The position numbers were made by a program, and so were the translations under genes. DNA of 64,000 nucleotides from NCBI GenBank assembly GCA_016840165.1, contig JAEOSU010000018.1:1-64000 (forward strand). Reading direction: 5' to 3'. Of this stretch, positions 32,181-64,000 are shown piece by piece (positions within the stretch are counted from its first letter, which is position 1; each line of letters opens with the position of its first letter). A model generated the notes under the pieces. The model was not told the DNA's origin and ran no database searches. It saw only the letters and a program-made list of their open reading frames with translations. Origin of the DNA: Promethearchaeota archaeon. GTDB taxonomy: Archaea > Asgardarchaeota > Lokiarchaeia > Sigyniarchaeales > SOKP01.

Positions 32181-32242
32181 TATAATTTTCTCTTGAAGTG
32201 ATTTCCGTACTGTAAAGATAATAATGATTTTAAAAAATATCT

Positions 32243-32836: not shown

Positions 32837-32966
32837 ACTAACTCTACCACTTTTTTAGTAATAATGTAGTTAAGATAAATAATGAGACTTTTTATTTTTT
32901 TCTATTCGGGAGCTAAGCAAATACATGTTATTTCAAACTGACGAATTCGATGAGAAAATAATGGGT

Positions 32967-33608
32967 TCAAATTTGAATGATATCTAATTGGATCAATTTA
33001 TTTAACGATTCATAAATTTCTTGCTGGGTCTTTCCAAAGGATCTGGAAATTTCGAGGGGCGAGGTCTTGCCATCACATTTCACAGCAATCTGAAATTCGG
33101 CATCATTAATCATACCCATTGATACAATTTTCTTTAAAACACTCACGTTTATTAGCAATTTGGGAAAAACCTCAGCAATGGTCCCACCATGAGTTAAATT
33201 TTCGATATCGGTAATAATGGTTTGAAATCTGCTTTTTTCCGTAGTGTCTCTAAAGAATTCGATATCCGATTTATGCTTTTTCCAGAATCTATTAGCAATT
33301 TTGCGTATTACGTCAATTAAACGGTCAGAATTATCATCAGCATCAGAAATAGAACAAAACAAAACCCGTGATAATGGATGATAAAAAATGACAATTGTAG
33401 AGTTTTCAGATTCGACGGTTCGCATTAATTCATTTTTTTTTTCCCCTTTCACCATTGCATCTTGAATATTGTCAATAATTCGGTTAATTTCCTTGAAAAA
33501 TCCAGTTATAATATCATTATTAATTTTTCCTTCTTGAAAATCTTTAAAAGAAGCTTCTAAAATGGATATGCCGTTATCCCCGTCAATTAAATAAATTTTA
33601 TAGATCAA
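32967..33608 (-). CDS. longin-like domain plus winged-helix protein
   Basis: IYLIDGDNGISIL...IITGFFKEI longin pattern. C-terminal CDGKTSPLEIS...IYESLNKL wHTH. Confidence 0.7.
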   Translation of the reverse strand: MIYKIYLIDGDNGISILEASFKDFQEGKINNDIITGFFKEINRIIDNIQDAMVKGEKKNELMRTVESENSTIVIFYHPLSRVLFCSISDADDNSDRLIDVIRKIANRFWKKHKSDIEFFRDTTEKSRFQTIITDIENLTHGGTIAEVFPKLLINVSVLKKIVSMGMINDAEFQIAVKCDGKTSPLEISRSFGKTQQEIYESLNKLIQLDIIQI

Positions 33609-35031: not shown

Positions 35032-36444
35032 TTAGATATAAGTTTTAATTAACTCTCTTAAATTTTTTGTGAGATTTGGTAGTGACTTTTCAATTTTTTC
35101 TACTCTTAATGCTTTTTCCATGAATAATAATAAATATAGATTATAATTATCTACATTTATTTTTTGAAATACAATTTTTTTAGATTGTTCCGAAATACCG
35201 GAAGTAACAATAAAATCTTTCTTTAATATCTTAAACTCTTTAAATGTCTTATATAAAGTCGTAAAGTGTGGTGCTGAGATTTCAAAAACCTTGTTAGCAA
35301 TATCAGATTTTGAATAATTCGATAAGATGATACCATTTTCATTTAAGAGAAGAATCGCATCAGAATTAACCTTGTCAGAAAACAAACGTAATTGGTTCCG
35401 GAATAATTCACGATTAGGGCTTAGTCGTGAAAGTCCAAATGAATAAGCGGAAATAAGGCTCCAATGATCAAAAATCGATGTTTGAAAGATTTTTATGAAA
35501 AAGGTATGAGAACTTTTGCCTATCTCATTGGTTATATATTCAATATTTTTTTTGATCTCTCTTGATTTCTTTAGATCTGGATCAAACTTATTGATACATA
35601 CTACTATAGGCGGAAACTCATCTAAATTTTTAAGGGAATTGAGAATGTTCTGAAATAATGAAACCGATTCTTTAATTCTTTCAGTATCTTGGACGTCAAT
35701 AAAATAAAACAATAAATCCACATTATACAAATAGACTTTTCCTTGTTCAAGAAACTTTTCTCGATATTTTTTTTGCCCCCCTAAATCCCATATAGATATT
35801 TGGGAGTTTTGTTCCTCAAATAATTTCTCCTCTGTTCTTGAAACTCCCTTTGTGGGTAAAGTTTTTATAATTTCAGAGTATCTCTTCTTTACCGCAAGTA
35901 AGAAACTTGTCTTTCCAGCTCTATCCAAGCCTGTAAATAAAATTTTTAATTGTCTTTTTATCGAAAAAGGATCTTTCAGTTCATTGGTAAACTCAAGTAA
36001 ATCTTTTTTAAGTTGATTCATAATAGCTTTATTCTCCTCTAATGTATTTCGAGCTAATATTTTTGTAGCAGTATTATCGATGATGACCCGCAAATATTTC
36101 ATGTTTTCATAAAAAAATATTTTATTTGTCTCTTCAATTAAAATGGTGATAGTTGCTGCTTTTGCGTTTCCTCTAGCTGCTTTATCAGGGATAAGAAAAA
36201 AATATGTTAATCCATTTAATTTTAAATCGGGAAAAGGTAAGATTCCGAAATAATTAATTCCTTCTATAGTTGTACCGTTTTGATAAACAGAATCGCCCAT
36301 AAGTAGACTTATAGTTTTCATAGCGACTAATAATCGCGCTGACTCATCTAAGTCTTCTGGCCAATAGATTATAGGAGTAGGTCCGTCATCATCAAAAAGG
36401 CTATATACAATTGACTTAATTATCTCTCTTTTCATTTCCGTCAT
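35032..36444 (-). CDS. uDENN/longin-like + Arf/Rag-like GTPase + roadblock-like fusion protein
   Basis: FDDDGP, DKAARG. G1 GLDRAGKTS, G2 LPTKG, G3 WDLGGQ, G4 NKFD, G5 TSIFD. C-terminal AILLLNENGIILS. Confidence 0.85.
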   Translation of the reverse strand: MTEMKREIIKSIVYSLFDDDGPTPIIYWPEDLDESARLLVAMKTISLLMGDSVYQNGTTIEGINYFGILPFPDLKLNGLTYFFLIPDKAARGNAKAATITILIEETNKIFFYENMKYLRVIIDNTATKILARNTLEENKAIMNQLKKDLLEFTNELKDPFSIKRQLKILFTGLDRAGKTSFLLAVKKRYSEIIKTLPTKGVSRTEEKLFEEQNSQISIWDLGGQKKYREKFLEQGKVYLYNVDLLFYFIDVQDTERIKESVSLFQNILNSLKNLDEFPPIVVCINKFDPDLKKSREIKKNIEYITNEIGKSSHTFFIKIFQTSIFDHWSLISAYSFGLSRLSPNRELFRNQLRLFSDKVNSDAILLLNENGIILSNYSKSDIANKVFEISAPHFTTLYKTFKEFKILKKDFIVTSGISEQSKKIVFQKINVDNYNLYLLLFMEKALRVEKIEKSLPNLTKNLRELIKTYI

Positions 36445-49643: not shown

Positions 49644-50381
49644 ATGAATATGTCTGAAAATAATAAAGAAAATCAAGATGATGTAATTAATGAAGAGGAA
49701 GAAGATTCTCATCAAGATGAGGAACCTAAAGAGGCTGAAGAATCAACCACAAAAGCTAAATTTACATTTAAGTGTACTCGTTGCGATGCTTGTTGCCTTT
49801 CGCGAGGTCCCATACCAATTACTTTTTATGATTTAGAATTATGGGCTAAAAACGGTGTAATCGCTAATTTTCTTCCCTATTTAGATATATATAACAAACC
49901 AGATGGCAGCATCGATCTGATAATGAAACCACTTCCTCCCAAACCCAAAGAAGGAGAAGAATCAAAGAGAGATCCATTTAGTCCTGTTCCAATCGAAGAA
50001 TTATTAGAAGAGAAATGCCCTTTATATAATAAAGAGAAGAAAGAGTGTTTAGTATATCAGAATAGGCCTCTTAGCTGTCGAACTTATCCGCTTGAGTATG
50101 ATGGGAAAAATTTTACAATAGTCGATGTTGATTGCCCTGGTTTAAACGAAGAAGGAATGACCAAAGAAGAATTAAAAGAGATGAGAGATACAGCAAAAAG
50201 AATGTTCTATGAATTGACACGCATGCGAATTACTATACCCGTTTTAAATCAATTAATTACTCAAAAAGTTATGATCGATTTGATGCGACAGAATATGGAG
50301 GCAATGAGCAAAATGTCAGATGAAGACCGAGCAAAATTGGACGAAATCTTTAAGAAGGATCAAGAAGTTCCTGAAGAATAA
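49644..50381 (+). CDS. YkgJ family cysteine-cluster protein
   Basis: CTRCDACC, CPL...CLVYQNRPLSCRTYP, CPG. Confidence 0.9.
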   Translation: MNMSENNKENQDDVINEEEEDSHQDEEPKEAEESTTKAKFTFKCTRCDACCLSRGPIPITFYDLELWAKNGVIANFLPYLDIYNKPDGSIDLIMKPLPPKPKEGEESKRDPFSPVPIEELLEEKCPLYNKEKKECLVYQNRPLSCRTYPLEYDGKNFTIVDVDCPGLNEEGMTKEELKEMRDTAKRMFYELTRMRITIPVLNQLITQKVMIDLMRQNMEAMSKMSDEDRAKLDEIFKKDQEVPEE

Positions 50382-50508
50382 ATTTTCTTTCATTTTTCCT
50401 ATTCCTATTTTTTTATTATTAAATGATTTAAATGGGACAACGTTATTTCAGCTTACAATGTAGCACCCGTTTGATTTGATTTAGATATAAGATATAATTG
50501 TGATAGAT

Positions 50509-50527
50509 TGGTTCCAATTAGGAACCA
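50509..50527. terminator. hairpin TGGTTCC-AATTA-GGAACCA between convergent genes
   Basis: 7-bp perfect stem immediately 3' of the stop codon of 50531..50842. Confidence 0.3.
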
Positions 50528-50530
50528 TTT

Positions 50531-50842
50531 TCACTTTTTATCTAGCATGGTCAAATTTTGTGAATAGTATTTGGCAATTCTCCTGGTTTTTACAACTGTA
50601 TAAATGCTTAGTGCGAGAAATACTGCAATTATCCCTAAAGGTGGTCCAATCGTTAACATCATCATAATGAAATCTCCGAAATCAAAAAATGGTGATGTAA
50701 TAATCATAATAAGGTACGTATAAATAAATGAGAATAGCGTATAAGATGTTAAGATAACGCTTATTAGAGCTATGACAAAAATCCATACCGATTGTTTTTG
50801 TGTTATATTAAACCCAAACCATGTTTCATTCTCTCTACTCAT
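50531..50842 (-). CDS. small two-TM membrane protein
   Basis: Hydrophobic helices, ATG with upstream GAGTGA. Confidence 0.6.
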   Translation of the reverse strand: MSRENETWFGFNITQKQSVWIFVIALISVILTSYTLFSFIYTYLIMIITSPFFDFGDFIMMMLTIGPPLGIIAVFLALSIYTVVKTRRIAKYYSQNLTMLDKK

Positions 50843-51054
50843 TTTATCACTCTCTATTAAAAATGGATTTTAATATCAAAAATTTAACTTAGGTTAATAA
50901 AGGTTATTGTCTTCATATTATATCTGAAAAGCACATTTTTAATCACTTCTGGATAGAAAATGCATGAATTTAAAAATTTAAATTAAAGTTATTTCTACCT
51001 AACTTTATTTTTCTGCCCGAAAGACTTTATAATATCATTATCTTAGAACTAATT

Positions 51055-51579
51055 ATGGATGAATTAGTGGTAGATGGCTCGAGAATTAAGTTAGCCAAAG
51101 GAGATATTACCGATTTAGACACAGATGTAATAGTCAACGCGGCAAATGCTCAACTTATTATGGGGGGCGGCGTTGCTGGAGCGATACGACGCAAAGGAGG
51201 ACCAAAGATACAAGAAGAGTGCAATAAAATCGGTGGTACTCATGTTGGAGGTGCCGTGATTACTACTGGTGGAAATTTAAAAGCTAAATATGTAATTCAT
51301 GCTGTAGGTCCCCGTATGGGAGAGGGAAATGAGGATGAGAAGTTGAAAAATGCAACTCTTAATAGTCTTAAATTAATGGACGAGAAAAAACTCAAAACGA
51401 TTGCATTTCCCGCTATTTCCACGGGTATATTCGGTTACCCTATTGAAAAATGTGCTGAAATTATGATCGCAACCAGTAAAGAATATTTATCTGCTGATAC
51501 ACAGATTCAGGAAGTAATTTTTTGTTTATATTCAAAAAATGATTATGATGTTTTTAAAAAAGAATTAAATTTATATTAA
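51055..51579 (+). CDS. macrodomain ADP-ribose-binding/hydrolase (Af1521/YmdB type)
   Basis: GDIT, IVNAAN, GGGVAGAI, VIHAVGP, FPAISTGIFGYP. Confidence 0.95.
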   Translation: MDELVVDGSRIKLAKGDITDLDTDVIVNAANAQLIMGGGVAGAIRRKGGPKIQEECNKIGGTHVGGAVITTGGNLKAKYVIHAVGPRMGEGNEDEKLKNATLNSLKLMDEKKLKTIAFPAISTGIFGYPIEKCAEIMIATSKEYLSADTQIQEVIFCLYSKNDYDVFKKELNLY

Positions 51580-51598
51580 TAAAAATTTATGGACTGCT

Positions 51599-52219
51599 AT
51601 GTCTGAATTAGCAAAGAAATTAACTGAAAAAATCTATAAGAAAATAAATTTTAAACCTAGACTTAAAGTTGATATTGGCGAAAAAGTTAAATTCTATTTC
51701 AGTATCATTGGATGGATAATTATCATTGGTTGTGTTTACTATTGGATTCATTTCTTTATCATAGTACGAATGTATGAACCACTTGTATATACAACTTATT
51801 TAAGCTTAATTTTAATTGGGTTGACTTCTATCTTCAGGTTTGAATCAGTCTTATTAAACTCTATTTCTTGTATTACTTTCTATGGATTCATTAATATCGC
51901 TATATTTATGATTTCTCAAGTAAACGATTTATTTAGTTTAATTGTTGGGCCAGTTCTTCATCTGTCGATTGCTGTATTCCAGTTATTTATTATTTTTCAC
52001 CCAAAGATTCCAATAAGTAAACAGTATCTATTATGGAGCTTCTTGCTATTCCTAATTTTTACGAGTAGTTATGACAGTTTTCAACGTTGGGACGTTATTA
52101 CTGGTTTGTATGATATCGTGCCAACCTCTTTTACCGAGGTTTATTCATTCTATATGCTGATATTTTCAGTTCTTGGAATTTACCTTTATAAGAGAAAATT
52201 TGGAATTTTAGTCAAATAA
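51599..52219 (+). CDS. multi-TM membrane protein
   Basis: About 6 hydrophobic helices, 19 bp after the macrodomain gene. Confidence 0.65.
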   Translation: MSELAKKLTEKIYKKINFKPRLKVDIGEKVKFYFSIIGWIIIIGCVYYWIHFFIIVRMYEPLVYTTYLSLILIGLTSIFRFESVLLNSISCITFYGFINIAIFMISQVNDLFSLIVGPVLHLSIAVFQLFIIFHPKIPISKQYLLWSFLLFLIFTSSYDSFQRWDVITGLYDIVPTSFTEVYSFYMLIFSVLGIYLYKRKFGILVK

Positions 52220-52339
52220 TTAATTAGCTAATAGATCTGAAAAGAACTTTATAGGAATGCATACTTTTTTTTTTGTAGTTTAATTATTTTTAAGAAATTC
52301 TCATTATTTAATTAACAAACAATATTAGCATGCTTTAAT

Positions 52340-55252
52340 ATGGAGCCAAGAAAATACGAATATATCCGATTTTTTGAAGAAGTTCGAAGAGAAGATGTTC
52401 CAATTGTCGGAGGGAAAAATGCTTCTCTCGGAGAATTGCTCTCTTTTGGAATTCCTGTACCTTTGGGTTTTGCAGTTACAGCAAAGGCTTTTGATTATGT
52501 ATTAGATACTAACTTCTTTACAATTAAAGAAGAAGAGGTCTCTCTGCGAGAACTCATATCTCGTGATATAAAGCGTATTTCAAATCAGCTAATGGAAGAA
52601 GATATAAAAGCGATTGAAGAGGTTGACAAGTTATGCGCAAATATACGATATATTATAGAAAAAGCTAAAATTCCCGATAGTTTGAGAGATGAAATTTTAG
52701 AAGCATATCATAAATTAATCGATCACATTGGGGAAGAAACCACTTTTGCCATACGGAGCTCAGCAACCGCGGAAGATTTACCTGACGCTTCATTTGCAGG
52801 CCAGCAAGATACACATTTAAACATCTCTGGAGAGAAAGATGTTTTAGATTATATTTTAAAAGATATGGCATCTGTTTTCACTACCAGAGCAACGATGTAC
52901 AGAGAGAGAGCGGGATTTGATCATTTTGCTGTAAAATTAAGTGTGGGCGTTCAGGAAATGGCTGGAGGAAAAGATGGAGTTAAAGCTTCCGGCGTAATGT
53001 TTTCAGAGGACCCAGACTCAGGTAATCCAAACGTTGTCGTCATTAGAGGAACTTGGGGCCTTGGAGAGTTGATTGTACAAGGAGTTGAAAAAGGTGACGA
53101 GTTCATCGTTTTTAAACACGGACCTCAATTACAAATAATCAGTAAAAGCCTCGTGAAAAAGGAGAAAACAATGATTTTCGATATTGAGAAAGGTGGGACG
53201 ATTACAAAACCCGTAGAAAAAGCTAATCAGAAGAAATTTTGCTTAAATGAACAACAAGTAAAGTTATTAGCTGAATTTGCCACCAAAATACGCGAACATT
53301 ATGGAGTACCAATGGATGTCGAATGGGCATTAGGAAATAATGGTAAAATCTATATAGTACAAGCTCGACCAGAAACAGTTCATTCTCAAAAAGGAGATAC
53401 AGAGGAGATATTTTATCTATTAGAAGATGCAACTAAACTTATATCGGAAAATTATTTAATTGATAATTCTGGCACAGCAATCGGACGAAGAATTGGATAT
53501 GGAAAAGTTAAAGTCATTGAATCGATTAATGAAGCCCATCTTCTTGAAGAAGGCGATATATTAATCACAGAGGAGACGAACCCAGATTGGACGAGTTATA
53601 TGGCAAATCTTGGAGGTGTAGTGACGGAGCGCGGAGGTCCCACTTGCCACGCGGCTATCGTTTCCAGAGAACTTAATATTGCATCAATTGTTGGTGCTGA
53701 TAATATTATAGAGCTTATTAAAGAAAAGATACGAGAATCCAACCTTCAAACAATTACAATTGACTGTAGTGAAGGCGAACCGCGCATCTGGGCAAAAGAG
53801 GTCGAATATGATTATGATACAATCGAATTTTCAAAGCTTCCTAAAACCAAAACGAAAGTTCTAGTGAATTTGGGAATCCCTAAAGGTGCTCTTAGTTCAG
53901 GAAAGCATCCTGATGGAACTGGGTTGGCACGTTTAGAATTCATCATAAATGATGAGATTCAAATCCATCCGAATGCCTTAATCGATTTCGATGCCTTACT
54001 TATGAGATATGATATTTTATTAGAACAAAGAAAAAAAATCGAAAATATAAAAAAAAGTGATCTCCACTATAAAGATCCCTTTAACGAAGAGATTAAACGT
54101 TTAAGGCTCACTATTGACAAAATTAGAGAACTAACAGAAGGTTATGATGATAAAGTCGACTTTTACATACAAAAGTTGGCGGAGGGTATAGCAACTATCG
54201 CAGCAGGCGTATGGAAAAAATTACCAGATGGTGAGATAGCTCCATGTGTCGTTCGATTGTCTGACTTTAAAACAAATGAATATGAAAACCTCATTGGCGG
54301 TTGGTTTTATGAAAGTGATGAAAATAATCCGATGCTCGGCTTCCGAGGGGCCTCACGTTACTGTTCTAACGATTTCCAGAACGCTTTTATCTTAGAGTTA
54401 AAAGCAATTAAAAAGGCTAGGGAATGGGGCTTGATTAATATCATTCCAATGGTTCCATTTTTACGGACTCCAGAAGAGGGCATTCATATTGAGCAGATAA
54501 TGAGATCACAAGATTTAATTCGAGGTCAAAATGGATTAAAGGTCTATTGTATGGCAGAAATTCCCTCAAATATATTCCTAGCGGATATTTTCTGTAAAAC
54601 ATTTGATGGGTTTTCAATAGGGAGCAATGATTTAACTCAATTAATTTACGGAGCTGGAAGAGATAACGAAAAACTGATTACACTTTCACGAAATTACAAT
54701 TATATAACGAATAGTGAAGCAATTAGAAGAGCAGTCTCCCATCTTATTAAAGTCGCCCATGAAAACAATAGAAAGGTCGGAATTTGTGGACAAGCACCGA
54801 GTGATGATCCCGATTTTCTCCGATTTCTAGTGAGGGAAGGAATTGACTCAATTTCTCTTAACTTTGATACTTTTGCTCGAGGAAGGATCAATACGTGGAG
54901 GACTGAAATTATTGAAAACAAGTTAAGTGAAGATAATAAAGAATTAGCATATACTTTTCTAAGCCAATGCGATGATTTAATTGAGAAACTACGAATTCCA
55001 CGTGGTAAATTAAGGAATCTTGCTCGAAAGAAAAGAAAGAAAATTTCAGAAACATTAGATATTAATGTTTCCAAATTTGATGAGATATTTGAAAATACGA
55101 CAAGGATCTCAAATGAATTTGTGCAGAATATTAACTCTGGCAAATTTAAAAATTTTAATAATCTCTATAATGAATATCACGAACAATTACAGTCATATGA
55201 TAAACTGGTTCCTCAATTGATGAAAAGTATTCGTGAATTTGGTATTTTTTAA
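52340..55252 (+). CDS. ppsA: phosphoenolpyruvate synthase with C-terminal helical extension
   Basis: VGGKNASLGE, RSSATAEDLPDASFAGQQ, phospho-His TCHAAIVSREL, NPMLGFRG, SIGSNDLTQ, GICGQ. Confidence 0.95.
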   Translation: MEPRKYEYIRFFEEVRREDVPIVGGKNASLGELLSFGIPVPLGFAVTAKAFDYVLDTNFFTIKEEEVSLRELISRDIKRISNQLMEEDIKAIEEVDKLCANIRYIIEKAKIPDSLRDEILEAYHKLIDHIGEETTFAIRSSATAEDLPDASFAGQQDTHLNISGEKDVLDYILKDMASVFTTRATMYRERAGFDHFAVKLSVGVQEMAGGKDGVKASGVMFSEDPDSGNPNVVVIRGTWGLGELIVQGVEKGDEFIVFKHGPQLQIISKSLVKKEKTMIFDIEKGGTITKPVEKANQKKFCLNEQQVKLLAEFATKIREHYGVPMDVEWALGNNGKIYIVQARPETVHSQKGDTEEIFYLLEDATKLISENYLIDNSGTAIGRRIGYGKVKVIESINEAHLLEEGDILITEETNPDWTSYMANLGGVVTERGGPTCHAAIVSRELNIASIVGADNIIELIKEKIRESNLQTITIDCSEGEPRIWAKEVEYDYDTIEFSKLPKTKTKVLVNLGIPKGALSSGKHPDGTGLARLEFIINDEIQIHPNALIDFDALLMRYDILLEQRKKIENIKKSDLHYKDPFNEEIKRLRLTIDKIRELTEGYDDKVDFYIQKLAEGIATIAAGVWKKLPDGEIAPCVVRLSDFKTNEYENLIGGWFYESDENNPMLGFRGASRYCSNDFQNAFILELKAIKKAREWGLINIIPMVPFLRTPEEGIHIEQIMRSQDLIRGQNGLKVYCMAEIPSNIFLADIFCKTFDGFSIGSNDLTQLIYGAGRDNEKLITLSRNYNYITNSEAIRRAVSHLIKVAHENNRKVGICGQAPSDDPDFLRFLVREGIDSISLNFDTFARGRINTWRTEIIENKLSEDNKELAYTFLSQCDDLIEKLRIPRGKLRNLARKKRKKISETLDINVSKFDEIFENTTRISNEFVQNINSGKFKNFNNLYNEYHEQLQSYDKLVPQLMKSIREFGIF

Positions 55253-55386
55253 GGAATTTCTCATAAATTAGCTAAAACGAAAAGCTACTAAGTATAGAAA
55301 AACAATAAAATTATATTTTATTCACTATTCATTAAATCATTCCTACTTACTATATTTCTGTAAATTTGTTATTTGGTGAATTTATC

Positions 55387-55668
55387 ATGAGCCATGAAAA
55401 AGAATTTACTGCCCTGGTTTTAGACACATTTGGAAAGGTTGAACAATTACTTAATGGAATGATCAATGATCGTTCAGTCCCTCGCAACATAAAACGAATT
55501 GCTCAGAGAGGGATTGATGAACTCAAAAAAAAGGATGATTCTCCTGCTGTTCATGCGAGTAATGTAATGTATATGGTTGATGATTTATCTCTTGATCCAA
55601 ATATTCCATTTCATCAAAGAACAACGATTTATAGAATTTTATCGTTATTAGAAAAAATAAAGGATTAA
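55387..55668 (+). CDS. UPF0147 family protein
   Basis: D.SVPRNI.R.A, DPNIP.H.RT. GGTGA before ATG 55387. Confidence 0.88.
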   Translation: MSHEKEFTALVLDTFGKVEQLLNGMINDRSVPRNIKRIAQRGIDELKKKDDSPAVHASNVMYMVDDLSLDPNIPFHQRTTIYRILSLLEKIKD

Positions 55669-55845
55669 ATTACTCTTTATTTTAAAATTTGTACTAGAAC
55701 TTATTTTAAATAATATGTATTAAATAAGTATTAATAAGATATTCCTTCCTATTTTAAACAAACAAAATTTAAATTAGAAAATGATAATATAATCTACAAA
55801 TATAAAGATTATATGAAATCTACAAACCAGTATATATTCAGCTAA

Positions 55846-56889
55846 ATGATAAACCAAGATATTATTACCGCTGTGTTGTATATCCAATTAGATGATGAAG
55901 TAGGTCCTAATCCCGTTGTAACTCTTCCTAAGGATTTTGCTAATGTAAATAAGATGCATGTCAGTATTAAAGTGATTACGGTACTTTCGGGAGAACATGG
56001 TAATGTTCCAAAAAAATTGGTCATTCTACCGTTTCCTTCTCTAAAATTAAAAGGAATTATTAAATATATTAAGTGGGACGATCCTAAACGAAGAGGAGGC
56101 ATTGGTCAGGCAGCAATAGCCATTTTATTTGAGGATATAAACGATGTTATCTTTTACAAATATTTTGAACAATTGAGCGACTCTTTCGAGGAAATAGGAA
56201 AAATCTTTAGAAATTTGGAAGAAAATAGATCTAAATTGGAAGAAATCGAAAAAGAAGTTAAGAATTTAATTAATAGAATCAAAACAGTACTTAATGAGCT
56301 ACGGATTGATGAAACATCTCAATCTGAATCAAAAGAATTTCCAAAACTTAAACTTAAAGATTCAACAATGATAGATTATAAATTCAAAATCATTGTGTTA
56401 GGAGATCCGGGAGTGGGAAAAACCTCGCTTATATTAAGATACACTGATAACGCTTTTCGAAGAAGTTATATTCCTACCTTAGGGGTGCACGTTAGTGATA
56501 AGATCTTTAAAATAGATGATGCCGTTGTTCAACTTGTAATCTGGGATTTAGCAGGACAACAAAAATTCGATACAATGCGTCATCAATTCTATGTTGGTTC
56601 TGATGGTTTTATTTTGGTATTTGATTTGACTAATCTCAATTCTTTTGAGAATTTATCTAACTGGTTTCTAGATATACAAAATCAATTCAAGGATCAAACT
56701 AACTTAATGGGTTATGTTATCGGAAATAAATGTGATTTAAGAGAGCAAGTTAAAATTAAATCGGAAAATGCAAAAGAATTAGCCTCTTATCTAAACCTTA
56801 ACTTTATTGAAACATCAGCTTTATCTGGTTTAAATGTTAATAAAGTTTTTACACAATTAGCAAAATCTTTATATACTTCATTTACTTAA
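55846..56889 (+). CDS. uDENN/longin-like + Rab-like GTPase fusion, paralog 1
   Basis: LDDEVGP, DPKRRG. GDPGVGKTS, YIPTLG, WDLAGQ, GNKCD, ETSAL. Confidence 0.88.
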   Translation: MINQDIITAVLYIQLDDEVGPNPVVTLPKDFANVNKMHVSIKVITVLSGEHGNVPKKLVILPFPSLKLKGIIKYIKWDDPKRRGGIGQAAIAILFEDINDVIFYKYFEQLSDSFEEIGKIFRNLEENRSKLEEIEKEVKNLINRIKTVLNELRIDETSQSESKEFPKLKLKDSTMIDYKFKIIVLGDPGVGKTSLILRYTDNAFRRSYIPTLGVHVSDKIFKIDDAVVQLVIWDLAGQQKFDTMRHQFYVGSDGFILVFDLTNLNSFENLSNWFLDIQNQFKDQTNLMGYVIGNKCDLREQVKIKSENAKELASYLNLNFIETSALSGLNVNKVFTQLAKSLYTSFT

Positions 56890-56954
56890 AATTCCTTGAT
56901 TCTATGATTATACTAATCGTTAGAAATAAAAAATTTTTGAGAATATAAAAAATT

Positions 56955-57044
56955 ATGAAAAAAAAAGTAAAATATCTATTAATATTCTTATTAATAATTA
57001 GTAGTTCAATCACGGGAGTAATATTATACGTATTAAATTTCTGA
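56955..57044 (+). CDS. candidate 29-aa membrane micropeptide or gene remnant
   Basis: Hand-translated MKKKVKYLLIFLLIISSSITGVILYVLNF*, below the ORF-track size cutoff. Confidence 0.35.
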   Translation: MKKKVKYLLIFLLIISSSITGVILYVLNF

Positions 57045-57183
57045 AAAATCTACATCAAGTGAAGAGATTTATTTTCTAAAGTTGATGTCTAATTGATCCA
57101 AATAACAGATATTTATATCATCTTATAAATTTTATATAGAATTTTAGCAATAACCAAATAATAAATATTGTTAATTTTTCAAT

Positions 57184-57209
57184 TATATAAGACTAAAAAC
57201 TTTTTAGTC
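57184..57209 (+). promoter_or_regulatory. TATA-like box followed by the perfect palindrome GACTAAAAA-C-TTTTTAGTC
   Basis: TATATAA at 57184-57190, 9-bp arms at 57191-57199 and 57201-57209, about 30 bp before the 57238 start. Confidence 0.5.
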
Positions 57210-57237
57210 GATAATTTATTAGCGTTGAGGATTAAGA

Positions 57238-58290
57238 TTGGATAGAGCGATCATTCATTCCATAGTATACACTGAATTTAATGATGAATTAGGTCCAAAT
57301 CCACTTTTTTGTCTTCCACAAGATTTGTCAGAGAACATTTCAATGCTTGTAAGCATTAAAACGGTTACGATCCTCTCAGCTGATCATGGTTTTATACCAG
57401 ATTCGCTTATAATTATTCCTTTTCCCTCGTTGAAATTAAAAGGTTTAATTAAATATATAGAAAGAGACGACGAATCAAGACGGGGAAAAGTTGCTCAATC
57501 TGCAATCACATTTTTATTTCGAGAAGTTGAAGATATCCTCTTTTATAAATATATGAACTATTTCAATTCTCCTTTTAATGAGACCACCCGTAAAATAGTT
57601 GAATTAGAAAATCAAAATCAGGATAAATCGCTGATATTTAGAGAAATTGAGAATTTAAAAGATAGTATTCACGCATTATTAAAAGATTTTAGGATTAAAG
57701 AATTTCAGCAATTCTCTTATAAAGAATTTCCTGAAATAAAAAAATTAACTGAAAAAGAAGTTGATTTAAAGGCGAAAATAGTAATTATTGGAGATCCAGG
57801 AGTCGGAAAAACAAGTACTATTTTACGTTTTACTGATAATGCATTTAAAAGAAGCTATATCCCCACTATGGGCACAAACATAACTGAAAAGAGTTTTAGA
57901 GTTAAGGATAATATAATAGAGTTGATTCTATGGGATTTAGCAGGACAAAGTAAGTTCGAACTTATGCGAAAACATTTTTATCAAGGCGCTGAAGCTGTTA
58001 TACTTATTTTTGATTTAACAAATCCTAAATCCTTTCAAAGTGTAATTCAGTGGTTTGAAGATATCGAGAATAACTTAATACTTGAGCATGAGCTTATTGG
58101 ATGTCTCTTTGGAAACAAAACTGATTTAACTAATGGACGTAAAATTGGTACTAATGAAGCACAAAAATTAGCCTCCCAGTTAAATCTAGATTACTTTGAA
58201 ACTTCGGCTCTAACAGGAAAAAATGTAGAAAATGCATTTTATAAGATCGCAGAGAAAATTATTGAAGTAAGAAAGCCAGATTTAGCATAA
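57238..58290 (+). CDS. uDENN/longin-like + Rab-like GTPase fusion, paralog 2
   Basis: EFNDELGP, DESRRG. GDPGVGKTS, YIPTMG, WDLAGQ, GNKTD, ETSAL. Confidence 0.88.
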   Translation: MDRAIIHSIVYTEFNDELGPNPLFCLPQDLSENISMLVSIKTVTILSADHGFIPDSLIIIPFPSLKLKGLIKYIERDDESRRGKVAQSAITFLFREVEDILFYKYMNYFNSPFNETTRKIVELENQNQDKSLIFREIENLKDSIHALLKDFRIKEFQQFSYKEFPEIKKLTEKEVDLKAKIVIIGDPGVGKTSTILRFTDNAFKRSYIPTMGTNITEKSFRVKDNIIELILWDLAGQSKFELMRKHFYQGAEAVILIFDLTNPKSFQSVIQWFEDIENNLILEHELIGCLFGNKTDLTNGRKIGTNEAQKLASQLNLDYFETSALTGKNVENAFYKIAEKIIEVRKPDLA

Positions 58291-58440
58291 ATTAATTCTT
58301 CCAACTAAGATTTATAATTAAGTTATAAAAATCTAAATTTTATAGTCTTATTCAAAATAGTTTAATTGGATAGTAATAAAAATAAACATTGCTAAATATT
58401 ATTTAAATTAGATTTTTATATTCTTGGGTGGAATCTAAGC

Positions 58441-59658
58441 ATGGTAAATTTTACCTTTGATGATTGGATCATAGGTGTTTCTACATTAGTAATTTTATTA
58501 TTTGGTTATGGATTAGGGTCCTACTTTTTTTACAAGTCAATAAAGATGAAGACTATGCTCCTTAGCATGCTAAGTTTGTCGATGATAAGTGTGAGTTTTG
58601 CATGGCTACCCATTGTTTTAGATTTCTTTTTAGTGCTTTTTACTAATACAAGTGGAGAACTTTTAGTTTATATATATTTAACTTGGGGTCAACTCCCTTT
58701 TAGCGTTTTTTTAAGTCAATATGTGGCTGCGGAACTCCTTTTACCATCAAAAAAGATATATATCATTTATTTCTTAGAAATAATCGGAATACTTTTCTTA
58801 GTATTTCTATTTTTAGATCCGGTCAATTCTGTTATCCCTGTAGGATATCCTGCGGAAAACTTTTATTATAAGATTAGTATTAAAAATAATTCATTTCTAG
58901 GGATTTTTGGTCTTATATTAATCCTTTTTGTCTTTATCTTTTCTGGTATAGGTTATATTTATAAATCTTCCATTTCTAAGCCTCAAATTAAAAATAATTT
59001 TAGATTTTTAGGAATAGGAATGATATTTATTTATTTATTTGGTTTTCTAGACAGTATTCTTAATGGGATCTTTCTTGTTTTAGTAAGAATAGGGGCGATT
59101 GTCGGGCTCTTTTTATCCTACTGGGGGCTTAAACCAAGAATTCAAAAAAAACATCATGATTATGATAATCGTGTGAAGGTGATTACTTATTTTCTCCATA
59201 AGCCAAAATCCGCGGATATTTCAGGAGAGATCGAATATTATCGTGATTTATTAAAACGGCCAATAGTTTTATTCATAAGTTTTTATCTTGGAGATTTAAA
59301 AATATTTAAGATAAGAGAGGTTATCCAAAAATTAAAAGTTTATCCTGAAATCAAAGATATTATTTATCGGACTTATGAAACCAATGAAAACATGTTTGAG
59401 TTTACACAAAATGTTATTGATAAATTTGACATAATGCTAGTATTTTGTTCAAAAGAAGCATTAAGTTCAATAGAGGTCAAAAATCAATGGATAAGTGCTC
59501 TTGAAAACAAGAAATCAATCATCCCTGTGTTTATAAAATCAGATTACGTGCCAGATCTATTGAAGAATAATGAAGGATTATTATATGATTTATATGACTT
59601 TGACAAAACAGTCTTAAATTTACGGCATTTAATATTAAAAGCAATTTTCAGTAAATAA
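58441..59658 (+). CDS. seven-TM membrane protein with C-terminal TIR domain
   Basis: Seven hydrophobic segments in the first ~230 aa, then LFISF...DIMLVFCSKEALSS..VKNQWISA....KSIIPVF TIR pattern. Confidence 0.78.
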   Translation: MVNFTFDDWIIGVSTLVILLFGYGLGSYFFYKSIKMKTMLLSMLSLSMISVSFAWLPIVLDFFLVLFTNTSGELLVYIYLTWGQLPFSVFLSQYVAAELLLPSKKIYIIYFLEIIGILFLVFLFLDPVNSVIPVGYPAENFYYKISIKNNSFLGIFGLILILFVFIFSGIGYIYKSSISKPQIKNNFRFLGIGMIFIYLFGFLDSILNGIFLVLVRIGAIVGLFLSYWGLKPRIQKKHHDYDNRVKVITYFLHKPKSADISGEIEYYRDLLKRPIVLFISFYLGDLKIFKIREVIQKLKVYPEIKDIIYRTYETNENMFEFTQNVIDKFDIMLVFCSKEALSSIEVKNQWISALENKKSIIPVFIKSDYVPDLLKNNEGLLYDLYDFDKTVLNLRHLILKAIFSK

Positions 59659-59673
59659 TCTGGTTTTCCGTGT

Positions 59674-60456
59674 TCAATTTTCTTTTTGGCAAGTAGGACA
59701 AAAAAAACCATGACGCCCCAAGATTTCATATCTTTTAATTGGTGTGTGACAAATAGGACAATTTTCTTCTTCAATTCGGTGAGGAATTATTAATTTACTT
59801 GAATAAGTTGCGAGATTTCCTTTTTTTCTGATCCCATACTTAAGAATCTCTTTAATATTTGTAAATAACTCTTTTAATTGATATTCCTGTAAAATATTTA
59901 TTTTAGTTAGGGGATTTATTTGAGTTCTGAATAAAATTTCATCAGAATAAATATTTCCAATTCCACATATAATCCTTTGATTCATAAGTGCGGTCTTAAC
60001 ATTAGTAGTTCTTCGTTTTAAACTCATTAAAAACTCTTCATAACTCATAGTAAGTGCATCGGGTCCTAATCTATTTTTATTGATATATTTCTTATAGTCG
60101 TCAGTAATATCTAATTTGCCAAACATTCTTGTAGATATATATGATAATATATGATTATTTGTGAACTCGAACAAAACTTTACTGTACTTTGGTTCTTCTT
60201 CTCCCCTTCTGTAGTATTCTAAATCTCCTGTCATACCAAAATGCATAACTAAGAAAAATGAATTACATTCTACAAATAAATATTTTCCATGACGAGTAAC
60301 TGAGTTAAATTTTTTACCCCGAAGGGTATTTATAAATATATTTTCCTCTATTGAGAGAATCCGAGTATCTTTAATTTTGATATTTTTAATTTGCTTATTT
60401 AAAGAGGTGGATTCAAAATATTGCTTAAAAGTCTCAACTTCTGGAAGTTCTGGCAT
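59674..60456 (-). CDS. mutM: Fpg/Nei family DNA glycosylase
   Basis: MPELPEVET, RHGKYL, HFGMTG, GIGNIYSDE, CPIC...CPTC zinc finger. Confidence 0.9.
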   Translation of the reverse strand: MPELPEVETFKQYFESTSLNKQIKNIKIKDTRILSIEENIFINTLRGKKFNSVTRHGKYLFVECNSFFLVMHFGMTGDLEYYRRGEEEPKYSKVLFEFTNNHILSYISTRMFGKLDITDDYKKYINKNRLGPDALTMSYEEFLMSLKRRTTNVKTALMNQRIICGIGNIYSDEILFRTQINPLTKINILQEYQLKELFTNIKEILKYGIRKKGNLATYSSKLIIPHRIEEENCPICHTPIKRYEILGRHGFFCPTCQKEN

Positions 60457-60485
60457 AATCTAAATTAGATTTTTAGTTTAATCAA

Positions 60486-61454
60486 TCAAATAAGGTGCTT
60501 TTCTTTCATTTCTGAGAAAAATTGTACTAAATTCACATTTCCTCCACTTAATATAACCCCTATTCGCTTATTTTTAGTTAGCTCATTATTTAATAATTGA
60601 AAAAGTAAGGGCGCAAGTGAGACTGCTCCAGAGGGTTCAGCTACAATTTTTAAATTCTCAAGATAAAACATCATCGCTTTAAGAATTTGTTCTTCACTAA
60701 CAGTTATTATGTCGTCAACATATTTCTGAATGATTGGAAAAGTGTTCTCACCTAAGGAAGTTCGTAATCCATCAGCAATAGTATCAGGATTTTCAACTAA
60801 TAATCTCTCTCCTGATTTGAAAGACCGATAGGCATCATCAGCATTTTTGGGTTCTACTCCTATTACTTTTATACTCCGATCTAAGCCTTTTGCCGCAAGA
60901 GCTGTTCCACTTAACAATCCTCCACCGCCAACTGGTACTAATATCAAGTCTAATTTACCTACTTCTCTTAGGAGTTCATAAGCAACTGTACCTGCTCCAA
61001 AAATAACATGATTGTCATTGTGAGGATGAATAAGGCTAAGACCTTTTTCGTTAGCTAACTTTTTAGCCATTTTCTCGCGATCATGTGGATTATTCCCACT
61101 AAATATAATCTCTGCTCCATATTCTTCAGTTGCTTTTCTTTTAAATTCTGAAGTATTTTCTGGCATTACTATTGTTGCTTTAATCCCCAGCATCTTTGCT
61201 ACTAAAGCCACTGCTTGAGCATGATTTCCGGAGGAATGAGCAATAATGCCTCTTTCTCGCATATCCTGCGAAAGCTGACTAATCGCATTCCAGGCACCCC
61301 TAAATTTAAACGACCCAGTCTTTTGGAAATTTTCACATTTGATATAGACCATTTTAGCTTGATTCAATTCATTAAGTATTCTTGACCTTATTATAAGAGT
61401 AGAATTTGCGATTCTACCAACAATCTTATTCGCTAATTTAATTTGTGAAAACAT
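60486..61454 (-). CDS. PLP-dependent threonine/serine dehydratase (serine racemase-like)
   Basis: KCENFQKTGSFKFRGA, SSGNHAQ, PVGGGGLLSG, SGGN. Confidence 0.92.
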   Translation of the reverse strand: MFSQIKLANKIVGRIANSTLIIRSRILNELNQAKMVYIKCENFQKTGSFKFRGAWNAISQLSQDMRERGIIAHSSGNHAQAVALVAKMLGIKATIVMPENTSEFKRKATEEYGAEIIFSGNNPHDREKMAKKLANEKGLSLIHPHNDNHVIFGAGTVAYELLREVGKLDLILVPVGGGGLLSGTALAAKGLDRSIKVIGVEPKNADDAYRSFKSGERLLVENPDTIADGLRTSLGENTFPIIQKYVDDIITVSEEQILKAMMFYLENLKIVAEPSGAVSLAPLLFQLLNNELTKNKRIGVILSGGNVNLVQFFSEMKEKHLI

Positions 61455-61550
61455 TTTTATCAGTCTCTTTATTCAAAATATCTTACAATTTAAATTGTTT
61501 TAGCTAAATTTTTGGTAGTTTTTTAAAAAAAAAGAAAAATTAATAGAAAT

Positions 61551-62351
61551 TTATTTTCTAAACCATCTTATTATATTATAAATGATTCCAACTGAGATAA
61601 CTATTAGGGCAATTAGTGCAGTGATGGCAACTGTTAAATTTAAAGTACTCTGTTTATACCAAATTCCAAATAATGCCCAGACAATGACTAAACTATATGC
61701 GGTATCCTTCTTTAGGAGTATCATCGCATAAGTTATGATAACTACTACGAGAATCACTAAAATTGTCCAGATCTCAGCAATTAAATTAGGTCCAGTCCCA
61801 CCTGCAGCTACTGCTACACCGTCAGCTACACCAGCTGATATTAAGACTGCTGTAATGTTAGCTACTGTAGCTACTGAAATCCAGCCCAAATACACGCTAA
61901 ATGGCACGTGTACCGCGATCTTTTCCCATCGGGGGACTTCTGCTCCGCCAATATCTAGTCGTCTGTATATTTGTAATAAACAAATTAGGAGGATTAACAT
62001 CATTACTAGCGATAGGGGAATTAAAACATAATGCCAAAAGAAGATCCACGCAAAATTTGCAAGATTTCCAATAATAAAATAATAGCTAATTTTATCTAAA
62101 TAGGGCATGTCAGTTTCTTCCTTTTTGAAGACATCTCTGATTTGATATAAAGAAAATAGAGAAAGCAAAAAGTATATAACACCCCAAATCGCGAAAGTTA
62201 ATCCCGCGGGTACAAATAAGTTTGGAATTGCATCAGATAATTCACCCGTATTTCGACCTCCAATCGGAATAATGTTTGCTAAAGCATTTACAGTAATAGT
62301 AGCAATGTTAGTAACCAAATTTAAGACTTGTAATATGATTTTTTTATTCAT
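61551..62351 (-). CDS. tryptophan-rich sensory (TspO-like) membrane protein
   Basis: NALAN, FVPAGLTFAIWGVIY, FSVYLGWISVATVAN. Confidence 0.8.
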   Translation of the reverse strand: MNKKIILQVLNLVTNIATITVNALANIIPIGGRNTGELSDAIPNLFVPAGLTFAIWGVIYFLLSLFSLYQIRDVFKKEETDMPYLDKISYYFIIGNLANFAWIFFWHYVLIPLSLVMMLILLICLLQIYRRLDIGGAEVPRWEKIAVHVPFSVYLGWISVATVANITAVLISAGVADGVAVAAGGTGPNLIAEIWTILVILVVVIITYAMILLKKDTAYSLVIVWALFGIWYKQSTLNLTVAITALIALIVISVGIIYNIIRWFRK

Positions 62352-62523
62352 TTTTACACCTTCTTTGTGAAACTTAATTTCTTATAAATTTTTTTTAGAG
62401 GTTATCAGGTAAATCTAATTTGTATCTTATAAAACTTTTTCATCTTTAATTTATTAATATTAACCTTCTAAAAGATCAAACGGATAATCGTTGTCGAATA
62501 ATTTTTTATAAAATTTTAAAAAA

Positions 62524-63210
62524 CTACCCAAAAATAATTTTTTCAATAAGAAAATAGAAAAAGTTTGCCGCACCGAGGTATAAAAGCATAACTACGAATG
62601 CTAAAATAATTTTAACATAGAATTTACTCACTTCATATTTATAGAATAGATAAAAGGTAGATAATCCAAGAATGACTTCTGGTAAAATAATATAAACAGC
62701 TAAATGATCAAATAGGAGAATAACGTTCTGCGGGTACCAAGAAAAGACCCACATCGACATCTCAGCACCGCTAAATATTATCAATGAGAGGAAAGTCGCT
62801 ATAATATATGCCTTATTAACGGAGTCACGTTCTCTTATTCTTAAAGATATGAAACAAATAATAAAAAGAGGAATTACCCATAAACCTAACATATATGCGG
62901 ATACGGTTCCTATTTTGAAAAATCCATCGTCCGGAAAAACCAAGATATTTAATTGAGCAGATAAGTACCAATCGGGAAATACTTGAAAAAAACTTATGAA
63001 AACAACGAAAAAGTACAATTTAAGCCATATTGAATAATTTCGAATTATTCCAACCAAAAATATTAATAGATTATAGTTTAGTACAAGAATAAATAATTTA
63101 ATTCCAATTAAAATTGGAAAAGGAATAACTAATATCACAACACAGATTGCAATAAAAAGAAGATGGGAGTAAATAAAGTCTTTTTCTATAGGTAAAAGTC
63201 TTACCATCAT
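62524..63210 (-). CDS. multi-TM membrane protein of unknown function
   Basis: About 7 TM, conserved-looking FQVFPDWYLS...LVFPDDG. Confidence 0.65.
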   Translation of the reverse strand: MMVRLLPIEKDFIYSHLLFIAICVVILVIPFPILIGIKLFILVLNYNLLIFLVGIIRNYSIWLKLYFFVVFISFFQVFPDWYLSAQLNILVFPDDGFFKIGTVSAYMLGLWVIPLFIICFISLRIRERDSVNKAYIIATFLSLIIFSGAEMSMWVFSWYPQNVILLFDHLAVYIILPEVILGLSTFYLFYKYEVSKFYVKIILAFVVMLLYLGAANFFYFLIEKIIFG

Positions 63211-63259
63211 AATAAATAATAAAAAGAAAAAAAATTAAAAATAGTTTTTTATATTACCC

Positions 63260-64000
63260 CTAGAATGGTCCAGTAAGAGAGGCATAAACACAAGGATGAT
63301 CGGCAGCATTTCCGCCGGTATAAAGCACCCGTGAGACTGTGGTGTTTAGATCTCCCGATACAAATATGTGATCAATTCGAGCGTGTGGTAATCGTGGAAC
63401 CCAACTATCTGGAACATCTCCTATCAATTGTAAAGAAGGTGGTACTAATTCCCAGCAATCATATAGTTCAGCAACCGTTATATTATATTGTTCTGTATTT
63501 GGTCGAAAATTAAAATCTCCCATCAATATAACATTCTGTAATCCCGGTATAAGGGATAGGATATTTTCTTGTTGTACTATTTGGGATCTATCCTCAGCAG
63601 GATCCTCATAATTTCCAAGATGTGTAACAAAAATATTAAATTCAGTAGTTCCTACTATGATTTTTACCCAGATAGTCGCGGTTTGTTCTCCTTTACTTTC
63701 CATATAAAATGTTCTTGGATTAAGTATAGGATATTTTGATAAAAGGGCAATCCCATAAGTGCCAGTCACGGTTTTCGGCCCATAATATGAATAAAGCTTC
63801 AACTGATTATCGATAAATCTTACGATATCAGTATTACCACTTGAAATCCTACACGTGTCTGATTCTTGTAATGCGATAATATCTCCATCTAAATTCTTTA
63901 TAACTTCATACTGACCTTCAAAATTTTTGTTTCCACTATCATCTGAGCCTTGCTGGATGTTATAGGATACAATTGATAAGGATGCATTTGAAACAGGTCG
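63260..64000 (-). CDS. endonuclease/exonuclease/phosphatase (EEP) domain, CWH43-like; 5' part outside the window
   Basis: Frame is open to base 64000: SYNIQQG, DIIALQESD, YGIALLSKYPI, THL, MGDFN, RIDHIF, ADH. Confidence 0.85.
   Translation of the reverse strand, partial: RPVSNASLSIVSYNIQQGSDDSGNKNFEGQYEVIKNLDGDIIALQESDTCRISSGNTDIVRFIDNQLKLYSYYGPKTVTGTYGIALLSKYPILNPRTFYMESKGEQTATIWVKIIVGTTEFNIFVTHLGNYEDPAEDRSQIVQQENILSLIPGLQNVILMGDFNFRPNTEQYNITVAELYDCWELVPPSLQLIGDVPDSWVPRLPHARIDHIFVSGDLNTTVSRVLYTGGNAADHPCVYASLTGPF

Follow-up and report, generated by a model that had tools for sequence, protein, structure and literature searches.

A seven-helix membrane protein of a Promethearchaeota archaeon with a TIR domain that carries glutamine at the catalytic glutamate position

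Contig JAEOSU010000018.1 of assembly GCA_016840165.1, from a Promethearchaeota archaeon of the Lokiarchaeia, was analyzed over positions 1 to 64,000 of its forward strand. This stretch of 64,000 nucleotides, contig C92 of the 3.6-Mb, 99.7% complete host assembly (genome G000), is called the window. The subject of the analysis is a gene at 58441..59658 on the forward strand, stop codon included, which was taken from the open reading frame (ORF) list and encodes a protein of 405 residues. The product combines a seven-helix membrane module (residues 1-230; 58441..59130), a juxtamembrane linker that is basic and partly disordered (residues 231-271; 59131..59253) and a cytoplasmic TIR domain (residues 272-405; 59254..59655), and is referred to as 7TM-TIR, for its seven transmembrane (TM) helices. 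At the canonical catalytic glutamate position of TIR helix alphaC the protein carries glutamine, Gln349 (codon CAA, 59485..59487).

The surroundings have a G+C content of ~29%. Neighbors at the locus are genes for PEP synthase, UPF0147, two longin-Rab GTPases, Fpg and a PLP enzyme; the convergent Fpg/Nei glycosylase gene has its stop 15 bp from the end of the 7TM-TIR gene. No Rfam family or tRNA was found within 50000-64000. Twelve orthologs of the protein with 43-85% identity were obtained from independent metagenomes, and their N termini share MVNF(T/S)F(D/E)DW with the window protein. Against two orthologs the dN/dS ratio was 0.13-0.17, a rough value because dS is saturated. The number and identity of the orthologs together with this ratio argue for a real gene and not a chance reading frame; the AlphaFold2 model agrees with this assignment.

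The model was built on a 28-sequence alignment and reached a mean predicted local distance difference test score (pLDDT) of 86.6. Kyte-Doolittle hydropathy and the model agree on seven TM helices, assigned by DSSP to residues 6-36, 39-68, 74-100, 102-125, 152-178, 181-206 and 211-230. Lysine and arginine residues cluster in the loops 32-37, 104-105 and 175-188 and in the tail 231-246, which indicates an N-out/C-in topology and places the TIR domain in the cytoplasm. Family alignments identified conserved residues in the membrane module, namely D61 in helix 2, the motif E98-L-L-x-P-x-K-K105 at the inner end of helix 3, K175, R216 and Y227-x-G. The model predicts a beta-hairpin (131-134/144-147) in the outer loop that joins TM4 to TM5. 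In this loop, P127, P137, F141, Y142 and K144 are invariant among the orthologs and variable across the wider 7TM family. Because of this variability, the predicted hairpin is a candidate ligand-facing element. The K/R-rich linker is the least constrained part of the protein, with pLDDT <50 for residues 234-252.

Neither Pfam nor NCBIfam assigned a family to the 7TM part. The first-pass annotation of the window had considered a HisKA_7TM-like or a G-protein-coupled receptor (GPCR)-like bundle. For GPCR-type receptors no sequence signal was detected in the 7TM part, and residues 1-235 superimposed on GPCR-type bundles with Z-scores of 12-13.9, inside the range of unrelated helical bundles. The best match, GABA-B, lies in this background range as well (Z 13.9, root mean square deviation (rmsd) 4.1 Å over 224 residues), and adhesion and class A/C receptors gave Z 12-13.6 and Foldseek TM values of 0.2-0.36. 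The top matches of Foldseek were GPCR crystal constructs with fused flavodoxin or similar domains and were rejected as an artifact of the two-domain shape. For HisKA_7TM (PF16927), the window protein had no match at E ≤0.1 and the whole genome none at E ≤1; a few relatives of the protein do match it, as described below.

A 7TM profile was searched with HMMER against 1.84 billion representative proteins; a word-based search gave close orthologs only. The profile retrieved 632 proteins at E ≤1e-3, including 155 at E ≤1e-30. In the ESM Atlas the module occurs among clusters of hypothetical proteins of 236-244 residues, mostly from Promethearchaeota, and the nearest named cluster has HisKA_7TM in 10% of its members. 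The best matches fall into length classes of ~235-245 residues (module alone), ~336-380 (the largest class), ~405-420 and ~484-618. A set of 150 sequences, consisting of 149 best matches and the window protein, was scanned with Pfam. C-terminal partners were the RING-type zf-C3HC4_3 (14 sequences), TIR_2 (12) and C1_2 (10), and HisKA plus HATPase_c occurred in four sequences, one of them also with PAS. PF16927 was matched by 5 of the 150 at E ≤1e-3 (best E 3.3e-6); the four kinase-fused members had no PF16927 match. About 36 of the 150 stand alone, as judged by a length of 200-262 residues. The commonest architecture is the module followed by a C-terminal, cysteine-rich RING/C1-like zinc finger, to which 60 of the 149 best matches belong by length (~336-380 residues). 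The occurrence of the module with kinases, zinc fingers or TIR domains, or alone, is the behavior of a sensor or input module. The 7TM part is thus a swappable, largely Asgard-specific input module placed before interchangeable cytoplasmic outputs. The family lies outside the curated models and, by its profile matches, would at best be distant kin of HisKA_7TM.

The C-terminal domain scored 25.9 bits on Pfam TIR_2 (PF13676), compared with a gathering cut-off of 28 bits. Seven other TIR proteins of the genome match it at E values of 1e-14 to 1e-24 and themselves score 45-58 bits on TIR_2, so membership of the window domain holds transitively, through homology to relatives above the threshold. 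The model places strands at 275-280, 304-309, 331-336 and 359-364 with helices between them, a flavodoxin-like alpha/beta fold as in TIR domains, at a pLDDT of mostly 86-93. In a structure search of 48,161 solved chains, residues 274-404 matched TIR and SEFIR domains with Z 12-13.9 overall, among them Hydra TRR-2 (13.8), MyD88 (13.7), the CRISPR-associated Cat1 (13.4), SARM1 (13.1), RPS4 (12.9), ThsB (12.5-12.6) and a prokaryotic SEFIR domain (12.1, 24% identity). The superpositions on TIR domains, including that on TIR-1, had rmsd values of 1.8-3.2 Å over 114-130 residues. With a profile of 17 Asgard TIR domains, the SEFIR structure 5y8e was retrieved at E 3.6e-7 and the TIR protein 9m0n at E 8e-4. 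By fold and transitive homology the C-terminal domain is a member of the TIR superfamily. Seven TM segments followed by a TIR-like domain, as read in the first-pass annotation from the letters alone, were therefore borne out by hydropathy, model and TIR superpositions.

Helix alphaC of the TIR domain spans residues 344-355 and begins within S343-I-E-V-K-N-Q349-W. In the profile alignment, the family glutamate column, which holds Gln349 in the window protein, falls on the glutamate of SEWVKKEI in 9m0n. Gln349 is thus assigned to the canonical glutamate position, and Glu345 (codon GAG, 59473..59475, forward strand) to position i-4, the tryptophan position of the S-x-W-x-x-x-E motif. Position i-4 is what we take to be the pocket-lining tryptophan position of SARM1-type TIR sites. 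The earlier claim of a glutamine at the catalytic position holds in both the family alignments and the 9m0n alignment. The same annotation had named placement of the nearby glutamate of SIE at the catalytic site, together with NAD+ cleavage by the domain, as a finding that would count against its reading; Glu345 was rejected as a catalytic residue by alignment, since it aligns with i-4 and is serine in one ortholog.

The column equivalent to residue 349 contains glutamine in all nine members of the clade to which the window protein belongs (the Gln clade) and glutamate in all 17 other 7TM-TIR relatives (Glu type). Glutamate was found in four paralogous 7TM-TIR genes of sister genomes, in the syntenic orthologs of two more distant genomes and in 11 further representatives of 50%-identity clusters, and it is kept in the seven other TIR proteins of the host genome. 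Among the compared sequences, only the window protein, the cluster representatives P0001-P0009 and the loci in G007 (L013) and in the metagenome-assembled genome (MAG) AMARA_5S (L029) carry glutamine. An assembly or sequencing error as the source of the glutamine was ruled out: 10 clade sequences from metagenomes and MAGs, drawn from four database sources and including two named MAGs, carry it. At position 345, eight of the nine clade rows have glutamate and G007 has serine, whereas proline is present in 17 of 17 Glu-type relatives; two clade proteins outside that set have aspartate (P0008) and glutamate (P0009). After strand betaB, E312, D316 and N317 are invariant in the Glu-type relatives. 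In the Gln clade residue 312 is tyrosine or histidine and 316 is variable; the acidic residues of this stretch are candidate counterparts of the BB-loop aspartate of plant or bacterial TIRs.

A maximum-likelihood tree was calculated from 26 full-length proteins, nine of them of the Gln type. The nine form one clade (support 100/100), whose stem is long (0.76). The Glu-type syntenic orthologs are the sister group (stem 0.24; joint support 100/99), and the 13 paralogous sequences in the tree all have glutamate. By parsimony, glutamate is the ancestral state and glutamine was derived on a single branch. The Gln clade has replacements at about 25 positions where 15-17 of the 17 Glu-type sequences share one residue, including Y281F, A282Y, T283x, K284x, E312Y/H, D316x, P345E, K348N, E349Q, R377N and L378E. 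The Glu-type proteins share the motifs F-x-S-Y-A-T-K-D, E-D-x-x-D-N-I-F-E-Y, S-x-P-V-K-K-E-W and S-R-L-G. In the Gln clade the loop after betaA changes from S-Y-A-T-K-D to S-F-Y-x-x-D and the alphaC motif from P-V-K-K-E-W-T-A to E-V-K-N-Q-W-I-S, while S-R-L-G becomes N-N-E-x. The replacements at 312 and 316 after betaB are accompanied by Y321F and M322T, and C329 is changed to phenylalanine. New residues have become invariant within the Gln clade, namely Q349, I351, S352, E378, F281, F321 and F329.

Conservation of the two halves of the protein was compared between these groups. Identity among the Glu-type paralogs was 0.63-0.66 in the TIR domain and 0.29-0.31 in the TM part, and within the Glu-type sister clade 0.91 and 0.73, respectively; within the Gln clade the values were 0.68 and 0.72. 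In Glu-type proteins, conservation of the TIR domain is thus about double that of the membrane part, and this excess is gone inside the Gln clade. The dN/dS ratio of the TIR domain shows the same shift, with ~0.04 in the sister clade versus, in the Gln clade, the 0.13-0.17 given above for the whole gene, equal to the ratio of its own TM module. Constraint on the TIR domain is relaxed yet persists, and purifying selection remains in the Gln clade. The strong ancestral constraint presumably reflects the active site. From the shift in identity and dN/dS it follows that this constraint was lost on one branch and that a new selected state was reached.

The persistence of selection bears on the reading that the protein works like the stand-alone 7TM members and that its TIR domain is an inert, slowly decaying appendage. 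Stand-alone 7TM proteins of ~236-245 residues are common, the domain no longer has the residues that were invariant ancestrally and its evolution is faster than that in the sister clade, and an ortholog is missing from most of the genus genomes searched, all of which would fit a relic. Against a relic stand the dN/dS of the TIR domain, equal to that of the TM module, the new clade-specific invariant residues and a fold predicted with high confidence. Full-length members are free of frameshifts and truncations; P0008, P0009 and P0012 lack an N- or C-terminal part only, and the contigs that carry P0009 and P0012 are 3.2 and 1.1 kb long. We consider a relic domain very unlikely.

Purifying selection would also fit a remodeled enzyme, in which the changes P345 to E and E349 to Q would have shifted the acid by one helical turn. 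Such a domain would cleave NAD+ or some other nucleotide, with a changed chemistry or a changed product. The coordinated replacement of pocket motifs could then be re-tuning rather than loss. The distribution at position 345, acidic in nearly all Gln-clade sequences (one has serine) and proline in every Glu-type relative, speaks for this possibility, as does the pocket-lining character assumed above for i-4. Serine 345 in the G007/P0007 ortholog does not fit it, and further hallmarks have changed along with the glutamate, among them the S-Y-A-T-K-D loop, the acidic residues after betaB and S-R-L-G. TIR constraint is also three- to four-fold lower than in the sister clade. Literature searches gave no precedent for a shifted catalytic glutamate in TIRs, and we know of none. 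A retained but altered enzymatic activity therefore appears improbable.

For 7TM-TIR and the two genes upstream of it, the first-pass annotation had proposed a possible receptor-GTPase signaling cassette. GTPase A (55846..56889, forward strand, 347 residues) and GTPase B (57238..58290, forward strand, 350 residues) are 46% identical, and each has ~170 N-terminal residues, with a longin domain, followed by a Rab-like Ras-family GTPase (Pfam Ras, E about 1e-49 to 1e-51; 7e-49 for GTPase B). The best solved relatives are Rab10, Rab35, Rab8A and Rab1 (E 1e-34). A model of GTPase B (pLDDT 81.9) matched Rab3C with Z 24.6, and its residues 1-153 matched the longin domain of the Lokiarchaeal roadblock-longin protein 8yqg with Z 16.9 and an rmsd of 2.5 Å over 145 residues. 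The C termini of both GTPases lack cysteine and thus a visible prenylation signal. In the 348-bp spacer between the two genes, a 29-codon ORF (56955-57044, forward strand) would encode a very hydrophobic peptide with a lysine-rich start (MKKKVKYLLIF...). The spacer is only 193 bp long in the AMARA_5S ortholog, and the ORF may not be conserved.

According to the ORF coordinates, the 7TM-TIR gene starts 150 bp past the GTPase B stop and is co-oriented with both GTPase genes, as the first-pass annotation had it. G007 and AMARA_5S have the same succession of genes (PEP synthase, UPF0147, GTPase A, GTPase B, 7TM-TIR, Fpg), and the spacers there measure 167-172 bp. In such a cassette, 7TM-TIR would be the receptor of the two longin-Rab GTPases, its non-catalytic TIR domain would dock or regulate them, and the three genes would form one unit. 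The co-orientation and the 150-172-bp spacer in three Gln-clade genomes are compatible with this arrangement. Gln- and Glu-type orthologs alike lie 0.15-2.8 kb downstream of GTPase B in five of five loci with enough flank, and GTPases without a C-terminal cysteine or prenyl anchor would need a membrane partner. Fusions of small GTPases with TIR domains exist in this genome and in a Helarchaeote.

The wider distribution of the genes argues otherwise. Orthologs of GTPase B (57-63% identity) were found in 24 of 24 genus genomes searched, an ortholog of 7TM-TIR in only three (G000, G007 and G018). In the Glu-type sister loci other genes intervene between GTPase B and 7TM-TIR: a nitroreductase-like gene in MAG DZ1B.201 (L032), and three genes, two of them on the opposite strand, in G018/DZ3S.305 (L014). 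In seven other genus genomes a co-oriented nitroreductase-like gene follows GTPase B after 9-120 bp and no 7TM-TIR gene comes after it; one of the seven has a 347-residue 7TM-family gene 1.5 kb further on. This nitroreductase-like gene (~190 residues) was observed next to GTPase B in L035-L041 and also between GTPase B and 7TM-TIR in both Glu-type loci, in L032 immediately behind GTPase B. Its pairing with GTPase B is better conserved than that of the GTPase with 7TM-TIR. The window genome has its nitroreductase gene on another contig (C91:11696-12271, 66% identity), which makes the adjacency of GTPase and 7TM-TIR most simply a secondary juxtaposition.

No GTPase was present within the flanks examined of the four paralogous 7TM-TIR loci. 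The window genome contains eight 7TM-family genes, eight genes with this TIR domain and 66 small GTPases; among the 15 7TM-family or TIR genes, only that of the window abuts a small GTPase and one more lies at 2.9 kb, which is about the chance expectation. PEP synthase, UPF0147 and Fpg are conserved equally well at the locus, so the linkage is ordinary synteny. Within the 150-bp spacer, an alignment of three Gln-clade spacers revealed a conserved A/T-rich block (58361..58398, forward strand), a candidate promoter of the gene itself, with no recognizable counterpart in the Glu-type sister loci. It is followed, 9 nt before the ATG, by a Shine-Dalgarno-like GGTGG (58427..58431, forward strand), which reads GGTGA in orthologs and is conserved in the Gln clade. 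Both elements are compatible with a separate promoter and ribosome-binding site for 7TM-TIR, a further point against a three-gene unit. A conserved receptor-GTPase operon is not supported; the adjacency is part of general synteny and is tight in three close genomes. The cassette as proposed did not survive the synteny comparison, and a functional unit of the three genes is distinctly unlikely.

The fusions of Ras/Rab-type GTPases with Glu-type TIR domains were seen in both orders, as a GTPase-TIR protein of 443 residues in the window genome (L020, C8:11352-12683) and a TIR-GTPase protein of 398 residues in the Helarchaeota genome Hel_GB_A (L034:7488-8684). For the former, no full-length ortholog was found in the other 40 genomes searched, so that it provides no co-occurrence pattern in favor of the cassette.

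The seven other TIR proteins of the genome combine the domain with WD40 repeats (1221 residues), a Ras-family GTPase (443), a PCI-like region (568), a STAND NTPase (930), an SMC/AAA ATPase (519), TPR repeats (1130) or no recognized partner (544). Glu-type TIR proteins lie on contigs C8, C15, C66, C72 and C91 (L019, L021, L023, L025-L027). PADLOC gave mad3/GajA-like matches for the SMC-like ATPase TIR protein. This Glu-type set looks like an expanded repertoire for TIR signaling or conflict. For the window protein itself there was no PADLOC match at E ≤0.01. No ThsA-like or other effector gene neighbors the locus, which has housekeeping genes around it and is not defense-island-like. A possible split 7TM/TIR pair on C15 (TIR 31650-33356, 7TM 35305-36021) was rejected as an operon, as two opposite-strand genes lie between its members.

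With moderate confidence, we interpret 7TM-TIR as a membrane sensor whose TIR domain acts through association or ligand binding and not through NAD+ cleavage. The catalytic glutamate and BB-loop residues are needed for NADase activity in all TIRs tested (PMC13732033). From the substitutions described above we infer that the window TIR has lost NADase activity and signals in the manner of an adaptor. The ancestral 7TM-TIR had a very strongly conserved, presumably enzymatic TIR domain with the four motifs. In the narrow clade of the window protein this site was dismantled and the fold retained under purifying selection. A signal in or at the membrane may rearrange the 7TM bundle or alter its oligomeric state, and TIR-mediated protein association, or binding of a ligand that is not turned over, could relay the change. 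A possible partner is one of the seven Glu-type TIR proteins encoded in this genome, much as inactive sensor TIRs such as plant RRS1 act together with a catalytic partner. The adjacency to the longin-Rab GTPases looks recent and would have arisen when the nitroreductase-like gene left the site. The first-pass annotation had likewise suggested a membrane sensor with a probably non-NADase TIR domain, and the swapping of the 7TM module and the loss of the other invariant TIR motifs lend weight to that suggestion.

Several points weigh against the interpretation as a non-enzymatic sensor. The residue mapping rests on sequence/profile alignment and predicted secondary structure, and that glutamine at 349 abolishes catalysis is a prediction from sequence. 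The acidic residue at 345, present in all but one Gln-clade sequence at a pocket-lining position, could rescue or alter catalysis. The Glu-type relatives, in turn, are only presumably NADases. No partner TIR gene adjoins the 7TM-TIR gene, unlike the situation in paired plant NLRs. Finally, the tight adjacency to GTPase B in three genomes and the Ras-TIR fusions in Asgard archaea leave room for a lineage-specific link to GTPases.

A more specific form of this signaling can be envisaged for the Asgard archaea, the closest archaeal relatives of eukaryotes: a 7TM receptor with a pure-adaptor TIR domain would, once a signal is sensed at the membrane, recruit or restrain either catalytic TIRs (such as the Rab-like-GTPase-TIR, WD40-TIR and STAND-TIR proteins) or the neighboring longin-Rab GTPases. 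This would amount to prokaryotic signaling in the style of TLR/MyD88 or RRS1/RPS4 that evolved from an enzymatic 7TM-TIR ancestor; in this full form we regard it as doubtful.

TIR domains are immune and signaling modules shared by bacteria, plants and animals, and their transition from enzyme to adaptor is an evolutionary question. The locus offers a natural pair of orthologs at the same genomic site, with the glutamate in one lineage and not in the other. The change from glutamate to glutamine is dated to one branch, together with the ~25 coordinated substitutions. The analysis also defines the largely Asgard-specific seven-helix input module, swapped among kinase, RING-like and TIR outputs, whose sensing side is experimentally approachable.

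No description of archaeal 7TM-TIR proteins emerged from full-text literature searches that combined TIR with Asgard or 7TM. The closest counterparts are the Glu-type 7TM-TIRs of Asgard archaea (among others L014/L031 in DZ3S.305, L032 in DZ1B.201 and clusters P0015, P0036 and P0047), which share 27-46% identity with the window protein and have its two-domain architecture, length (405-420 residues) and topology. Two of them are syntenic with the 7TM-TIR gene of the window and are its true orthologs in the same genomic region. The Glu-type proteins keep the glutamate and the motifs S-Y-A-T-K-D, D-N-I-F-E-Y and S-R-L-G, all of which the window clade has replaced. On the input side, HisKA_7TM modules similarly place an N-terminal seven-helix part before interchangeable outputs, although the window protein itself does not match PF16927. 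Among solved structures, the bacterial BcSEFIR (5y8e/5y8f) and the TIR-TPR/NLR-type protein 9m0n come nearest in sequence to the TIR family of Asgard archaea, the latter with its S-x-W-V-K-K-E aligned. The PADLOC models for ThsB and TIR-NLR gave weak matches from Glu-type relatives and none from the window protein.

Animal TLR and IL-1 receptors also combine a membrane sensor with a C-terminal cytoplasmic TIR domain. The TIR domains of MyD88, Hydra TRR-2, MAL and IL-18R-beta superimpose on that of the window protein with Z 12.5-13.8 at an identity of only 7-18%. TLRs have a single-pass TM segment and a leucine-rich repeat (LRR) ectodomain, whereas the window protein has a seven-helix bundle; the likeness is an analogy of design rather than evidence of receptor homology. 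The first-pass annotation had cited animal TLR TIRs as non-enzymatic scaffolds. This premise is no longer safe, as cADPR production has been reported for several TLR TIRs in a 2026 preprint (bioRxiv 10.64898/2026.04.20.719644).

In paired plant NLRs, the sensor TIR lacks the catalytic glutamate and BB-loop residues, and the executor keeps them (PMC13732033). The sensor TIR of RRS1, which is paired with RPS4, resembles the window TIR in that it is without the catalytic glutamate and/or the BB-loop aspartate, is under selection and has kin that keep the site (PMC13732033). RRS1 and RPS4 differ from the window protein in being soluble NB-ARC-LRR fusions encoded by head-to-head partner genes, whereas the window TIR is anchored by a 7TM module and has no adjacent TIR gene. 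By analogy, RRS1-type sensor TIRs are the closest functional precedent for the window protein, and this comparison implies no common descent beyond the TIR superfamily.

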